Below, piece after piece: positions 5,434-56,665 of a DNA stretch of 64,000 nucleotides. The notes beneath the pieces are model-generated. The model ran no database searches. It was not told the origin of the DNA and saw only the letters and a program-made list of their open reading frames with translations. The stretch's first letter is position 1, and every line of letters starts with the position of its first letter. Source of the stretch: a virus; the IMG/VR virus record IMGVR_UViG_3300049460_000196, positions 49,104 through 113,103 of that record. One strand, 5' to 3'. Position numbers and translations under genes: made by a program.

Positions 5434-5436
5434 GTA

Positions 5437-5649
5437 TTAGTCACGTTTGTTTGCCAGTTCGTTCAACTGTTTGCTGAGGTCGGCGTCGGTTTCGGCGGTG
5501 ATCACGCCCAGCTTAACCATGTTGTTCATGGTACCACGATACACTTCAAACTCGCGGTTATCGAACGACTCAACCATCACGTGCTCGCGACCAGTGTCGC
5601 TGTCGAAGGTGTCGTAGTTGTGTTTGATCTGCGCGTTGATGATATACAT
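5437..5649 (-). CDS. hypothetical protein
   Basis: 70 aa, AGGAG RBS. Confidence 0.6.
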   Translation of the reverse strand: MYIINAQIKHNYDTFDSDTGREHVMVESFDNREFEVYRGTMNNMVKLGVITAETDADLSKQLNELANKRD

Positions 5650-5677
5650 GGTCGCTCCTGCATTTGTGTAGAATCAC

Positions 5678-5706
5678 ATTATAGACGCAGATGAACAGAA
5701 AATCAA
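5678..5706 (-). promoter_or_regulatory. sigma70-like early promoter
   Basis: TTGATT-17nt-TATAAT, TGTTCAT in spacer. Confidence 0.75.
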
Positions 5707-5714
5707 GTAATATT

Positions 5715-5985
5715 TGGTGGACCAGAGCGGAATTGAACCGCCACGACGTCGCGAACGTCTTTCCCAGTGCGGAGGACTTGTACTCACCTGAGTAGCCCAG
5801 CGAAGCACCAATACATGATGCTTTGGTGGACTATGGGGACTCGAACCCCCTCTCCCTGGCCCGTAATGATCAGCCTCGTGGGGCTTGTCCCACAATCTCC
5901 GCCATTAGATGTAGCGGTGCTGAATCACGCTTCTGAAGCTACTCGCTTGAAGCCGATCATTACGAGCGACTGTTGCCAGTCACCC
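5715..5985 (-). ncRNA. structured tRNA-like RNA with two T-arm/CCA ends
   Basis: T arm+ACCA at 5715 and 5824, 18-bp upstream helix, GCAA tetraloop hairpin. Confidence 0.65.
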
Positions 5986-13209: not shown

Positions 13210-13962
13210 TGGGGGCGGGTGGAGGACTCGAACCTCCGACAACGTCCTTACAAGGGAATTGAGGGTTATGCTGTGACTATCCTGATCAGGATCGTGCCTT
13301 TCGGCTTCTACAGCTAAATAAGGTCGCGAGATTGCAGTCTCCACCTTTCTAACGCTTTCAAGGAGCATCAGCATGGATATTTATCCGCCAACTTTTCTTT
13401 ATATAAAACAACACGCAATTACTGGCAAACTTTACTTTGGCAAAACCGCAAAGGACCCAGAAACTTATTTGGGATCAGGCACTTATTGGCGCAAGCATAT
13501 CAAAAAACATGGAACAGAACATGTCATTACTGTGTGGTATTGTTTGTTTTATGACACGACAACAATAAGTGAATTTGCATTATCATTTTCGGCAATGCAC
13601 AACATTGTTGAATCTACAGATTGGGCAAATCTTAGGCCTGAAAATGGTCTAGATGGTAACCTTCCTGGAAATGTCCCGTGGAATGTCGGACTAGAAGCAC
13701 ACAATAAAGGCACAACCAGTCCAAACAAAGGGCGAACTTTGTCAGTTCGTTCTCAAGAACATAAAGACAAAATATCAGCAAGCTTAACTGGTAAAACCAA
13801 GTCTAGTAAACCTCAACCCAATCGAAAAGCACGGGTACATGTAAAACACGACACCGTAATCTGCCCTCATTGCGGAAAAACTGGCGGAAGTAATATAATG
13901 GGTAGGTGGCATTTTTCTAATTGTCCAGCTAAGACGTGCTCTACCAACTGAGCTAACCCGCC
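13210..13962 (-). pseudogene. split tRNA-Thr(TGT) (5' half 13932-13962, 3' half 13210-13254)
   Basis: GGCGGGT/ACCCGCC acceptor and CGTCT/GGACG anticodon stem across a ~680-bp insert. Confidence 0.85.
13373..13951 (+). CDS. GIY-YIG (Seg-like) homing endonuclease
   Basis: FLYIKQH...LYFGKT...YLGSG, NUMOD3-like segment, CPHC zinc knuckle. Confidence 0.85.
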   Translation: MDIYPPTFLYIKQHAITGKLYFGKTAKDPETYLGSGTYWRKHIKKHGTEHVITVWYCLFYDTTTISEFALSFSAMHNIVESTDWANLRPENGLDGNLPGNVPWNVGLEAHNKGTTSPNKGRTLSVRSQEHKDKISASLTGKTKSSKPQPNRKARVHVKHDTVICPHCGKTGGSNIMGRWHFSNCPAKTCSTN

Positions 13963-15358: not shown

Positions 15359-15442
15359 TGGTCCCCTGGGCGAGATTCGAACTCGCAAAAGCCTGCCTTC
15401 TGACGACAGTAGGTGTACCAGATTTCCACTAGCCACCAGGGG
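15359..15442 (-). tRNA. tRNA-Leu(CAG), expanded D region, short variable loop
   Basis: paralog of 9601..9684; loop GT-CAG-AA. Confidence 0.7.
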
Positions 15443-16781: not shown

Positions 16782-16858
16782 TGGTTGCGGATGGGTGGAT
16801 TCGAACCACCGACGTAGAGGTTATGAGCCTCCTCTTCTGACCACTGAATTACACCGCA
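16782..16858 (-). tRNA. tRNA-Met(CAT), initiator-like body
   Basis: cloverleaf with bulged acceptor stem, CCA. Confidence 0.8.
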
Positions 16859-18124: not shown

Positions 18125-18793
18125 TTACGGAAACTTCATCTTTCGACCAAGCTTCCAATTTCGAGAAAGCCACAAATCAATGTCTTCTCGATTTATCTTT
18201 ATCGTGCGCTTTTCTATTTCAGAAAATATCCACATAGTGCCATACTGCGAGTTACCAGTACCGCGTGCGCTTTTTGATACGTTATCTCCAATTTTCTTCT
18301 TGGTTTCTTCGGTATGATTTTTACCTTTAAAACTGGGAGGCGGCGTGCCTGGTAAATTGGCTATGCCTGCTGATGATCTATTGGTTTTTGTTTGTTTTGC
18401 CCATTCGGGGTCATTATCTCTCAACCATTGCTGCCTTTGTTGACTGATCTTATTCTTGGCAGTTTGACGACATGAATCGGCATTAATGATATTGTTAGGC
18501 CAACTGCTACCACCTAAAGATATGTTCATACACATCGGATCAGTTAGCATTTCGGCACACACCAATTCTGCTTCGCGTTCTCTCAACCACTCCCTACTGA
18601 AGTAATGCTCGAGAATCGCACATACGTGATTTTCCTTACCGTGAACATTAACTGATCGCCCAAGCAGTTTGCCAGAACCAATATAACCGTCATTCAGGTC
18701 ATAAGTGCTGTGCATACCCAAGTAATATTTTCCAGTCACAATGCACGTGGTGCGATATATGTAATGATACTGTCTGTTGGTCATATCCGCCAT
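18125..18793 (-). CDS. GIY-YIG homing endonuclease (Seg-like) with NUMOD3
   Basis: YIYRTTC...YYLGMH...YIGSG and GKNHTEETKKKIG motifs. Confidence 0.9.
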   Translation of the reverse strand: MADMTNRQYHYIYRTTCIVTGKYYLGMHSTYDLNDGYIGSGKLLGRSVNVHGKENHVCAILEHYFSREWLREREAELVCAEMLTDPMCMNISLGGSSWPNNIINADSCRQTAKNKISQQRQQWLRDNDPEWAKQTKTNRSSAGIANLPGTPPPSFKGKNHTEETKKKIGDNVSKSARGTGNSQYGTMWIFSEIEKRTIKINREDIDLWLSRNWKLGRKMKFP

Positions 18794-19057: not shown

Positions 19058-19140
19058 TGGCAGGAGCTGTGGGACTCGAACCCACGTGGATTTCTCGACG
19101 GCTTTGGAGACCGTTGCAATCGCCGCTATGCGAAACTCCT
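19058..19140 (-). tRNA. tRNA-Trp(CCA), long variable region
   Basis: loop CT-CCA-AA, ~12-nt variable region, CCA. Confidence 0.8.
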
Positions 19141-20048: not shown

Positions 20049-20136
20049 TGGTGGGAGCAGTGGGGATCGAACCCACTCTGGACTTTCGTCTCGCCGGATT
20101 AAAAGTCCGGTGCCTACCCAATTCGGCATTACTCCC
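20049..20136 (-). tRNA. tRNA-Lys(TTT), long variable arm
   Basis: loop CT-TTT-AA, GAC-GAAA-GTC variable hairpin, CCA. Confidence 0.8.
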
Positions 20137-20146
20137 TGTGAAACAA

Positions 20147-20221
20147 TGGTAGGGCCGCAGGAGCTCGAATCCTGTTTGTCTGGTTAAAAGCCAGATACTT
20201 CACCATTAAAGTTTCAACCCC
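20147..20221 (-). tRNA. tRNA-Lys(TTT)
   Basis: divergent cloverleaf, CCA. Confidence 0.8.
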
Positions 20222-20367: not shown

Positions 20368-20490
20368 TATTGCGATTTACCAGGTATCCCAATGACGAGA
20401 CCAATCGCTCCAACAGGCTGGAGTTCCAGATGATGCGCATTCAACTCGCGTTGACCATACGTGCCACTCACGGCATAACACCTCGCAATA
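20368..20490 (-). ncRNA. putative structured RNA
   Basis: TATTGCGA/TCGCAATA terminal stem, internal hairpins, within the tRNA array. Confidence 0.4.
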
Positions 20491-20495
20491 AAACT

Positions 20496-20571
20496 TGGTG
20501 GAGGATATCGGGATCGAACCGATGACCTTTAGCTTGCAAAGCTACTGCTCTCCCAGCTGAGCTAATCCCCC
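20496..20571 (-). tRNA. tRNA-Ala(TGC)
   Basis: cloverleaf, G3.U70, CCA. Confidence 0.93.
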
Positions 20572-20661
20572 AGGGTGGCAATGTTTGTACCGGTATGGCA
20601 AACATCACCCGCACATGCCGACTAGAACCTTTTCAGGGGATGAGGACATGAACGTTTAACT

Positions 20662-20738
20662 TGGTCTCCAGTGCAAGATTCGAACTTGCGCCCCATGGTC
20701 CCAAACCACGTGGATTAACCTGACTTTCCTAACCGGAG
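20662..20738 (-). tRNA. tRNA-Pro(TGG)
   Basis: cloverleaf, CCA. Confidence 0.88.
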
Positions 20739-20787
20739 ATAAAAACTTGGTATCTAGTACTGGTCTCGAACCAGTGACCTCATCGAT

Positions 20788-21045
20788 TTAATCGATTGTA
20801 CCGTTGACTTTTATTTGTACAAGATCGCTAAACATTTTAGAGATCCCACTCAACTCATTCAAATAATCTTCCGTCAACTTATCGTCTTCGGTTAATTCAA
20901 CTTTTAAATTAAGTTCAGCTCTTTGTTCTTGTACTTGTTTGTGAATAAGTGCAGTGGCCACTTGCAATGTGTCGATTGGTAAACTACTCGCCAACATAGC
21001 TACTGCATTCCGAAGTGCCAATATTTGTACTTGAGTTGATGACAT
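20788..21045 (-). CDS. hypothetical protein inside split tRNA
   Basis: 85 aa, start MSSTQ after AGGAG. Confidence 0.65.
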   Translation of the reverse strand: MSSTQVQILALRNAVAMLASSLPIDTLQVATALIHKQVQEQRAELNLKVELTEDDKLTEDYLNELSGISKMFSDLVQIKVNGTID

Positions 21046-21104
21046 ATGATTCTCCTTTAGAACAAACAGGATGCACATGTTTTTGTCATACCGCAATATT
21101 ATTC

Positions 21105-21179
21105 TGGTACTCACGGAAGGAATTGAACCTTCGACCCTCTCCACGTCAAGGAGGCATTCTACCACTGAACTACGTGAGC
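21105..21179 (-). tRNA. tRNA-Val(GAC), nested in split tRNA
   Basis: cloverleaf, CCA. Confidence 0.9.
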
Positions 21180-21180
21180 A

Positions 21181-21534
21181 TTATCTTTTCTTGTTACCCC
21201 AGGTAGGGGTCTGTCTGTGGCAGTTTGGACACAGAAATCTCAAATTATCTGGATGATTGTTGGTCTTTACCCCATCCATATGGTCGATATCCAAACTAAG
21301 TGGTTTACCGCACCAGTCACTTACTGCACAACATGAACAGGCATAACCGTCGCGTTCCGTTAAGAACTTGATCATCGCCGGGCTATTATAATGAACAGCA
21401 CCTTGCAATATTTTCGGTTTGGTAACCGATATCCAGGTAAATGCGTGTTGGCATTTGTTCGAGCAGTATTTGCCATTAAATGCTGGCGGTTTATACTTTG
21501 TTGGTTTACCACAATTGATACATGATCTTTCCAT
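21181..21534 (-). CDS. HNH endonuclease
   Basis: LDIDHMDGVKTNNHPDNLRFLCPNCH; TATAAATA at 21552-21559. Confidence 0.9.
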   Translation of the reverse strand: MERSCINCGKPTKYKPPAFNGKYCSNKCQHAFTWISVTKPKILQGAVHYNSPAMIKFLTERDGYACSCCAVSDWCGKPLSLDIDHMDGVKTNNHPDNLRFLCPNCHRQTPTWGNKKR

Positions 21535-21616
21535 ATAAGCACCTTTTCAGGTATTTATAAGAGCGATCTGGTTCAACGATGTGCTCTACCAACTGAGCTA
21601 ACTAGATATTGAAACT

Positions 21617-21691
21617 TGGCAGCGAATCTAGGGCTCGAACCTAGGACCTTGAGATTCAAAATCTCCTGCTCTACCTCTGAGCTAATCCGCA
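21617..21691 (-). tRNA. tRNA-Gln(TTG)
   Basis: cloverleaf, CCA. Confidence 0.88.
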
Positions 21692-21700
21692 ACTGAAACT

Positions 21701-21780
21701 TGGCGACCTAGATGGGTATCGAACCCACCTGAATATCTTCCGTGACAGGGAAGTGACCACTCCATGCAGTCCCCTAGGCC
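21701..21780 (-). tRNA. tRNA-Asp(GTC)
   Basis: divergent D arm, loop CT-GTC-AC, CCA. Confidence 0.82.
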
Positions 21781-21797
21781 ATATTACTAATTGTCAA

Positions 21798-21869
21798 TGG
21801 TCCCTCGTGATGGAGTCGAACCACCCTATTAGCGTTCGTAGCGCCAATGCCGTATCCCACGGACGAGAG
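21798..21869 (-). tRNA. tRNA-Arg(ACG), compact fold
   Basis: 6-bp anticodon stem TTGGCG/CGCTAA, CCA. Confidence 0.75.
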
Positions 21870-21872
21870 AAA

Positions 21873-21977
21873 TATTCTTAGTTGCGGGCCCTGGATTTGA
21901 ACCAGGACAAGCATTAGATGTCTCGGGATTATGAGCCCCGCGTGTTACCAGGTTACACTAACCCGCGACTAAGAATA
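21873..21977 (-). tRNA. initiator-type tRNA(CAT) with long variable region and extended acceptor helix, no CCA
   Basis: C1.A72, G-rich anticodon stem, flanks TATTCTTAGT/ACTAAGAATA. Confidence 0.75.
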
Positions 21978-21997
21978 CTTGGTATTACATACTTGAA

Positions 21998-22076
21998 TGG
22001 TGCGTCAGGCAGGGTTCGAACCTGCATGTGTCCAGTTACCTTTCGCCTGGTTCGTAGCCAAGGGGGATACTGACGC
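21998..22076 (-). tRNA. tRNA-Arg(ACG) lacking a D arm
   Basis: GCGTCAG/CTGACGC, loop CT-ACG-AA, T arm, CCA. Confidence 0.7.
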
Positions 22077-22371: not shown

Positions 22372-22446
22372 TGGTGCCCCAGGATGGAATCGAACCACCG
22401 CACGCTGCTTACAAAACAGCACCTCTACCATTAAGGATACAAGGGC
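22372..22446 (-). tRNA. tRNA-Thr(TGT)
   Basis: cloverleaf, CCA. Confidence 0.85.
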
Positions 22447-22450
22447 GTAA

Positions 22451-22554
22451 TATCGTTTGCTCCGAGAGCTGGATTCGAACCAGCGGCGGCCTTTACGGCG
22501 ACGGATTAACAGTCCGGTCTCTGCTACCACTCGAGTACCTCGGAGCAAACAATA
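22451..22554 (-). tRNA. tRNA-Asn(GTT), long variable arm, extended acceptor helix, no CCA
   Basis: loop CT-GTT-AA; flanks TATTGTTTGC/GCAAACGATA. Confidence 0.75.
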
Positions 22555-23293: not shown

Positions 23294-23369
23294 TGGTGCA
23301 GTCAACTGGTATCGAACCAGTATCCCCGGACTTTCAAACCGTCGCATAGACCATCTTTGCTATGACTGC
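23294..23369 (-). tRNA. tRNA-Phe(GAA)
   Basis: cloverleaf with weak anticodon stem, CCA. Confidence 0.78.
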
Positions 23370-23399: not shown

Positions 23400-23474
23400 T
23401 GGTGCCCCCGGTTGGTATCGAACCAACCTCTACGACTTTTCAGGCCGTCGCTAATCCATCTCAGCTACAGGGGC
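23400..23474 (-). tRNA. tRNA-Phe(GAA)
   Basis: cloverleaf, CCA. Confidence 0.88.
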
Positions 23475-56533: not shown

Positions 56534-56628
56534 TGGCAGAAGCAGTCAGATTCGAACTGACGGAGCGTGTGTCTAGCACGCTCGGCGGTTTTCAAGACCG
56601 CTGGGTTCAACCACTCCCCCATGCTTCC
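56534..56628 (-). tRNA. tRNA-Ser(TGA)
   Basis: class II cloverleaf, G73, CCA. Confidence 0.92.
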
Positions 56629-56665
56629 ATTCTAGTATTTATAGACCGCAAATGACGCGGGTTAA

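Follow-up and report, generated by a model that had tools for sequence, protein, structure and literature searches.

The stretch of DNA considered here (the window) makes up the final 64 kb of one IMG/VR virus record of 113,103 bp, with a CheckV completeness of approximately 27%. All ARAGORN calls, 55 tRNA genes and a doubtful tmRNA, fall on the minus strand, and most of the tRNA genes form a dense array at 4–24 kb of the window. A conserved 604-aa structural protein is about 45–48% identical to proteins of 200–350-kb siphophages of Caulobacter and Brevundimonas, and a structural-protein search of IMG/VR found no close relative of the phage; the record is therefore regarded as a fragment of a jumbo phage without close sequenced relative.

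Within this array, one gene for tRNA-Phe(GAA) is present as two halves separated by 784 nt. The 5′ half (minus strand, 21572..21607; 36 nt, tRNA positions 1–36) comprises the acceptor 5′ strand, the D arm, the 5′ strand of the anticodon stem and the loop through the anticodon, ending in TTGAA; read from 21607 to 21572 it is ATCTAGT-TA-GCTC-AGTTGGTA-GAGC-A-CATCG-TTGAA. The 3′ half (minus strand, 20748..20787; 40 nt) resumes with loop positions 37–38 and continues through the 3′ strand of the anticodon stem, the variable loop, the T arm, the acceptor 3′ strand, A73 and CCA; from 20787 to 20748 it reads AT-CGATG-AGGTC-ACTGG-TTCGAGA-CCAGT-ACTAGAT-A-CCA. Joined, the halves form a 76-nt molecule which ARAGORN identifies as tRNA-Phe(GAA), with 7 + 4 + 5 + 5 = 21 Watson-Crick pairs and not one mismatch or G-U pair; U8, A14, the GG of the D-loop, U33, A37, a TTCGAGA T loop, A73 and the encoded CCA are all there. 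No decay is apparent in either half. The same pair was recovered independently by a scan for orphan T-arm/acceptor modules, and we estimate the chance of finding 12 specified stem bases together with a correctly spaced T arm in 128 kb at well under 0.01. Because of two A residues at the junction (TTG/AA) its placement is ambiguous by 2 nt, and position 34, 35 or 36 may be the last one before the break.

Following the minus strand from the anticodon, the insert starts with a 12-nt filler, CCAGATCGCTCT (21560..21571), which separates the anticodon from the conserved leader. Only then follows the promoter-like box of the cassette leader, TATAAATA (21552..21559), and the Shine-Dalgarno sequence AAGGTG of the nuclease gene (21540..21545). 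The leader is predicted to fold into a hairpin; its 5′ strand shares bases with the TATAAATA box, and its 3′ strand contains, and thus pairs, this Shine-Dalgarno sequence. The nuclease gene itself (21181..21534) encodes an HNH (His-Me finger) endonuclease of 117 aa with an N-terminal CxxC zinc ribbon. One nucleotide past its stop codon begins a nested tRNA-Val(GAC) gene (21105..21179; Rfam, 63.3 bits), which is the only gene for this tRNA in the record. A 59-nt spacer (21046..21104), with the Shine-Dalgarno sequence AAGGAG at 21057–21052, leads to ORF85 (20788..21045; 85 aa), the TAA stop codon of which (20790–20788) abuts the 3′ half. In sum, the 784 nt consist of a 37-nt leader, the HNH ORF, 1 nt, tRNA-Val(GAC), the 59-nt spacer and ORF85; only 97 nt are non-coding. 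A preliminary description of the locus had noted a tRNA-Phe split into perfect halves around an HNH gene, a tRNA-Val and a small ORF with its stop codon directly at the junction, all of which is confirmed; its statement that the insert begins with TATAAATA was wrong, the box (21559–21552) lying 12 nt inside.

At 40.3% GC the insert is poorer than the 45 longest ORFs of the genome (mean 48.9%), and GC3 is 0.42 for the HNH gene and 0.31 for ORF85 against a mean of 0.53 (sd 0.095) in the same 45 ORFs; the other two nuclease genes of the array are equally AT-rich. Neither a terminator nor a strong promoter was seen inside the unit, so that it is probably co-transcribed with the array. The use of a T4-type late promoter was considered and rejected: TATAAATA occurs three times in the window where 1.24 occurrences are expected, which is no enrichment, and for this reason the box is termed promoter-like only. 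One of the other occurrences, at 56636–56643 (minus strand), lies 7 nt upstream of a gene for tRNA-Ser(UGA) (56534–56628), placed as if it were its promoter.

The 117-aa protein carries the HNH/His-Me finger signature, as judged from its sequence and a structural model: a ββα-metal core, the catalytic histidine, the metal ligands and CxxC zinc ligands are all predicted. Invariant among 42 homologues are D82, D84, H85, D87, N97 and H106 as well as the two CxxC pairs, C66/C69 and C102/C105. The Pfam profiles HNH_3 and HNH match with 24.2 and 19.4 bits, both slightly below their cut-offs. The AF2 model (pLDDT 88.8) places a ββα element at residues 82–107, and its best Foldseek matches in the PDB are all HNH nucleases (McrA, PacI, Cap5, GVE2 HNH and I-HmuI), with E-values of only about 0.01. 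The gene is single-copy in the record, its closest homologue (P0001) is 79% identical, and the protein is likely a homing endonuclease.

ORF85 does not belong to the conserved cassette and is an orphan here. Its product is helical, and the ORF is AT-rich. No homologue was found in viral contigs or in a set of 5.8 billion proteins, and a structure search of the Atlas returned generic helical look-alikes only. That its 3′ end might be a decayed second copy of the tRNA 5′ half was rejected, as the alignment score of 16 is matched by 28% of shuffles. Where ORF85 meets the 3′ half (20781–20796, minus strand), its final codons and the first bases of the half make up a palindrome, ATCGAT-TAA-ATCGAT, which forms a 6-bp hairpin competing with the anticodon stem of the tRNA; this could be chance, a trace of insertion or a functional hairpin.

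The tRNA-Phe gene is, as the preliminary description had it, the third tRNA of this array broken at the anticodon arm. A tRNA-Thr(UGU) gene is split at 13962/13237 by another nuclease gene, which lies on the opposite strand, and its halves still fit. A tRNA-Leu gene is split at about 8034/7444 by yet another, and here the 3′ strand of the anticodon arm is gone; perfect halves are thus not a property of all three, while matching acceptor strands have been kept in three out of three. A fourth nuclease gene of the array, encoding a GIY-YIG/NUMOD3-like protein of 222 aa (18125–18793, minus strand), is apparently intergenic, between two different tRNA-His(GUG) genes.

The same array contains two tRNA-Phe(GAA) genes without interruption, detected with both Rfam and ARAGORN on the minus strand 2.5 kb from the split copy (23294–23369, 51.5 bits, and 23400–23474, 56.1 bits), which makes the latter dispensable. 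Several tRNAs of the array are oversized, namely Lys(UUU) (88 nt; 20049–20136), Trp (83 nt; 19058–19140), Met (87 nt; 21881–21967), Asn (86 nt; 22459–22544) and Arg(CCU) (84 nt; 15359–15442), all on the minus strand. Their length is due to long variable arms, not to insertions in the anticodon loop, and hence there is no sign of a general habit of removing introns. These arms, which are partly paired, are abnormal for the isotypes concerned; such tRNAs might be variants escaping variable-loop or anticodon nucleases. Three further tRNAs (16786–16857, 22375–22446 and 20150–20221, minus strand) are found by the Rfam model with 47–52 bits and were overlooked by ARAGORN; in the one at 20150–20221, which resembles tRNA-Lys(UUU), the acceptor stem is rich in G-U pairs and the D arm is reduced. 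The tmRNA call (5435–5914, minus strand) covers two separate T-arm/acceptor modules, at 5719–5742 and about 5830–5862, and has no Rfam confirmation as tmRNA; tRNA-like RNAs have probably been miscalled here.

The context of the nuclease was then compared across 171 loci with HNH relatives from viral and metagenome contigs, all treated with one scoring script, by which 89 loci were scorable. Fourteen full-length relatives are the closest (≥105 bits) and derive from unrelated phage contigs; in 12 of them a tRNA-Val(GAC) gene starts between −10 and +7 nt from the HNH stop codon, and these partner tRNA genes are quite divergent among themselves. Another subclade is coupled in like manner to tRNA-Leu(TAG) (13 loci); no tRNA lies close to the genes of more distant HNH proteins. 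Over all scorable loci, a tRNA lies within 15 nt of the HNH gene in 40 of 89, and the family is scattered across unrelated contigs beside many tRNA isotypes. Together with the adjoining tRNA-Val(GAC), the HNH gene is therefore an old, co-inherited and conserved mobile unit, and the tRNA is not a spare for the broken tRNA-Phe. This nuclease subfamily sits habitually in or beside tRNA genes, and its linkage to tRNA-Val(GAC) is a long-term one.

The leader belongs to the unit as well. The motif (T)ATAAATA, in a leader with a Shine-Dalgarno sequence, is found 19–37 nt before the start codon in seven of the closest relatives, compared to a background of 0.057 per window. The motif mostly lies within the 5′ strand of a hairpin which has the Shine-Dalgarno sequence in its 3′ strand, and the leader in the window folds alike; in several relatives, the outer strand of the hairpin is GGTAGAGC, a D-loop/D-stem sequence of tRNA. 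In most of the tRNA-Val(GAC) loci (L003, L094, L096, L097, L099, L100, L107 and L120), the HNH ORF extends 10 nt into the tRNA, and its stop codon thus falls in the acceptor/U8-A9 region. By analogy to SegB of phage T4, RNase P cleavage in such overlapping loci would leave a nuclease mRNA without stop codon and thereby act as a brake.

Upstream of the nuclease, many relatives retain 5′ tRNA pieces of varied length (L094, L096, L027, L014, L003/L097, L099 and L100). In L094 and L096 (Val) and in L027 (Leu) the acceptor strand of the stump is complementary to the 3′ acceptor strand of the cassette tRNA; there, the nuclease lies inside a tRNA gene and the cassette brings a new 5′ part. In L027 (2262–2860, identical to L009/L010/L180), where a tRNA-Leu(GAG) lies beside the HNH gene, the upstream stump pairs with the 3′ acceptor at 7/7 positions and the downstream 5′ part at 5/7, the latter with a poor D stem. 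The longer stumps of L003/L097, L099 and L100 are unpaired, the stump of L014 ends at GGTAG, and in L002 and L093 only GGTAGAGCA remains. The breaks thus fall at various positions between about 21 and 38, with stumps at differing stages of decay, which is unlike a precise intron. Most relatives from the same nuclease subfamilies are either intergenic or preceded by a decayed 5′ stump only. In each of three short contigs from metagenomes, a lone HNH ORF with no tRNA nested beside it occupies the anticodon loop of a frame that is complete in all other respects: a tRNA-Arg(GCG) broken near the canonical position 37/38 (L130:17–620), a tRNA of no assigned isotype (L117:555–1130) and a tRNA-like RNA (L103:545–1150), the HNH stop codon lying inside the 3′ half in the latter two. 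For the L130 nuclease, the relatives proved to be intergenic, and no orthologous split that would permit a covariation test of the halves came to light.

Elements of this kind have precedents in phage tRNA clusters. SegB of T4 is a free-standing homing endonuclease encoded in a tRNA cluster; it recognises the TψC motif of tRNA genes and is co-inherited with the tRNA genes surrounding it (PMC2330249). It cuts inside many tRNA genes, and a statistical link to tRNAs exists across phages (PMC13096335). The segB ORF ends at a tRNA, and maturation of that tRNA cuts between the last and the stop codon, which is thought to limit expression; in the passage concerned, the same is said of F-TflI and F-TflII of T5 (PMC2330249). 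SegB of T4/T6 and the present cassette have in common a nuclease gene that is part of a phage tRNA array and stops directly at a tRNA (PMC2330249; PMC13096335), here with the stop codon 1 nt before tRNA-Val. However, SegB is a GIY-YIG nuclease and the present one an HNH nuclease; segB lies between tRNA genes while the present cassette lies inside an anticodon loop with both tRNA halves surviving; and the present nuclease, unlike SegB, keeps a stable partner, tRNA-Val(GAC). [quoted passage not shown] In the T5-like Escherichia phage HdH2, a homologue of theirs, an HNH protein with 37% identity to the present one over 95% of the protein, is encoded in the tRNA region, its stop codon overlapping the start of tRNA-Thr. 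Yet the T5-family and HdH2 genes lie between other genes and are not flanked by the halves of a tRNA, whereas the present gene lies inside a split tRNA-Phe.

Lak megaphages contain unexplained conserved insertions in tRNA-Phe(GAA), tRNA-Gly and tRNA-Tyr, as well as one in tRNA-Thr(TGT) which itself contains a tRNA (10.1101/356790). As in the present case, tRNA genes of a huge phage, Phe(GAA) included, are interrupted near the anticodon; but the Lak insertions, compared by their description only, are short, have no reported nuclease gene and are identical across cohorts (10.1101/356790). With the exception of this preprint, a literature search returned no paper on a nuclease cassette inside the anticodon loop of another tRNA, with intact halves and a fixed tRNA partner. 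The present element belongs with SegB and the tRNA-region HNH genes of T5, and it differs from the known systems in its location inside the anticodon loop of another tRNA, in the integrity of both halves and in its one fixed tRNA partner.

We consider the locus to be most likely the product of a recent insertion (probability about 0.72), by which a homing-endonuclease cassette put out of action a tRNA-Phe gene that was redundant, the jumbo-phage array having three genes for tRNA-Phe(GAA). A recent anticodon-targeted insertion was among the readings offered in the preliminary description, and the conserved mobile unit of HNH gene and tRNA-Val(GAC), the AT-rich insert and the undecayed halves speak in its favor, as does the other cassette of the window, which destroyed tRNA-Leu with loss of sequence. 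On the other hand, flawless halves would also be expected under selection for pairing, matching acceptor strands persist in all three split tRNAs, lone HNH ORFs lie in complete frames in L130, L117 and L103, and the tRNA carried along is Val, not a spare Phe. The Tpt1/KptA gene of the phage and the conserved tRNA insertions of Lak megaphages (10.1101/356790) likewise count against this reading. Exact searches of viral contigs with the joined junction and with each half, and of metagenome contigs with the junction, gave nothing, and neither an uninterrupted copy of this tRNA-Phe nor a close relative of the phage was found in viral contigs, metagenome contigs or IMG/VR; the recency of the insertion is therefore deduced from the state of the locus itself.

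The following course of events may be envisaged. The free-standing cassette would consist of the promoter-like TATAAATA leader, the hairpin-masked ribosome-binding site, the HNH gene and tRNA-Val(GAC), here with ORF85 in addition. Its nuclease would cut tRNA genes of genomes free of the cassette, and repair of the break would copy nuclease and tRNA-Val across. In the present case the break would have occurred in tRNA-Phe, perhaps, as we speculate, because its loop, TTGAAAT, differs at a single base from TTGACAT, the loop sequence of many of the partner tRNA-Val genes. Cleavage by RNase P at the 5′ end of tRNA-Val might then terminate the nuclease mRNA, as proposed for SegB of T4, and the split tRNA-Phe would be a young pseudogene, its loss covered by the two other Phe genes. 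Ectopic homing owing to a special similarity between the split tRNA-Phe and the partner tRNA-Val was considered as well and rejected; the best matches of the tRNA-Phe are ordinary tRNAs of many isotypes, with at most 58 of 76 positions identical.

A functional split of tRNA-Phe is, by comparison, improbable. It could take the form of a tRNA-shaped frame, the halves being selected not for tRNA-Phe but for pairing as acceptor stem, T arm and D arm; RNase P and 3′ processing would then excise the unit from the long array transcript, and the frame would protect the mRNAs of the nuclease and ORF85. The engineered “tRNA scaffold” used for RNA expression in E. coli may be likened to such an arrangement. 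The flawless halves, the exact end of ORF85 at the 3′ half, the probable co-transcription with the array and the complete frames around HNH ORFs in L130, L117 and L103, the ORF stopping within the 3′ half in the latter two, would all be accounted for. However, most relatives of the same subfamilies have no such frame but are intergenic or have a decayed 5′ stump only, no orthologous split is conserved, the nuclease gene in the split tRNA-Thr is on the opposite strand, and the fold of the whole precursor singles out only the acceptor stem, all of which makes the frame an unlikely explanation.

Still less probable is a true intervening sequence or two-piece tRNA, as raised in the preliminary description. 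RNase P and RNase Z would free tRNA-Val, an endonuclease would trim at the anticodon loop and a ligase, either RtcB of the host or a phage ligase encoded on the missing 73% of the genome, would restore tRNA-Phe, with Tpt1 removing the 2′-phosphate. Perfect halves with an encoded CCA, the interruption of L130 near the canonical 37/38 and the conserved “enigmatic introns” in huge-phage tRNAs, including Phe(GAA) and one intron containing a tRNA (10.1101/356790), are consistent with this. Moreover, a gene for Tpt1/KptA (PF01885; 145 bits), an enzyme of one tRNA-ligation pathway, is encoded at C1:38850–39353 of the genome, about 9.8 kb before the start of the window; no gene for an RNA ligase was detected alongside it in the record.

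Group I introns with homing endonucleases do occur in anticodon loops of bacterial tRNAs, e.g., the intron of Synechocystis tRNA-fMet which encodes I-Ssp6803I. They share with the present case the nuclease gene inside the anticodon loop, but they are self-splicing ribozymes, for which there is neither a match nor space here. Rfam detects no intron of any class over 20400–22000 at E-values up to 10, or over the whole window at gathering score. Group I boundaries require a 5′ exon ending in U and an intron ending in G; at the three possible junctions, the 5′ exon ends in G, A or A and the insert in T, A or A. With 97 non-coding nt left for a ribozyme, group I and group II introns were rejected. 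Archaeal split and intron-containing tRNAs, as in Nanoarchaeum and Caldivirga, need a bulge-helix-bulge, the splicing endonuclease and RtcB (PMC3400036). Like the halves of these tRNAs, the present ones could pair via acceptor and anticodon stems; none of the three requisites was found for the present tRNA-Phe in the record, and the archaeal-type motif was rejected since no bulge-helix-bulge appears when mini-precursors or the full 860 nt are folded. Nor did the 113-kb record (about 27% of the genome) yield RtcB or Rnl and Pnk, to which the preliminary description had pointed: RtcB, Rnl1/Rnl2, a Pnkp-like (AAA_33) kinase, RtcA and the splicing endonuclease were all looked for in it and not found, Tpt1/KptA being the only enzyme of this kind that was found. 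The profiles PF01974, PF01139, PF09414, PF09511, PF13671 and PF01137 gave no match in the record, although for PF09511 (Rnl1) the positive control did not match either. In the sequence at hand, about 27% of the genome, no splicing apparatus was thus found.

The relatives point in the same direction. The preliminary description had taken halves decaying in relatives as the mark of simple disruption, and decayed 5′ stumps indeed lie beside nucleases of the same family, with breaks anywhere from position 21 to 38. As, in addition, the Phe function is redundant, a spliced or ligated two-piece tRNA finds no support and we regard it as very unlikely. The more general proposition that nuclease cassettes in tRNA genes of huge phages are protein-dependent or scaffold-type intervening sequences, the tRNA frame being processed and possibly religated via a phage or host pathway involving Tpt1, is doubtful too, its odds lying only a little above those of the two-piece tRNA. 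Finally, mis-joining at repeated tRNA sequence, conceivable for an uncultured-virus contig rich in similar tRNA genes, can practically be dismissed, as it would not flank a complete conserved nuclease and tRNA unit with two exactly complementary halves, and the same architecture is present in independent assemblies.

If the intervening-sequence reading were true, the “enigmatic introns” of megaphage tRNAs would be explained, and bacteria-infecting viruses would have a new route of RNA processing. The preferred reading, recent insertion into a redundant gene, provides a concrete and testable account of interrupted tRNA genes in very large phages, namely nuclease-plus-tRNA cassettes homing into tRNA genes. 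Split tRNA genes of this type are overlooked by tRNA finders, which calls for caution among annotators. Beyond this, a single tRNA species, Val(GAC), has remained the companion of one nuclease subfamily in phages that are distant from each other, which is of relevance to the assembly, reshuffling and spread of phage tRNA arrays.
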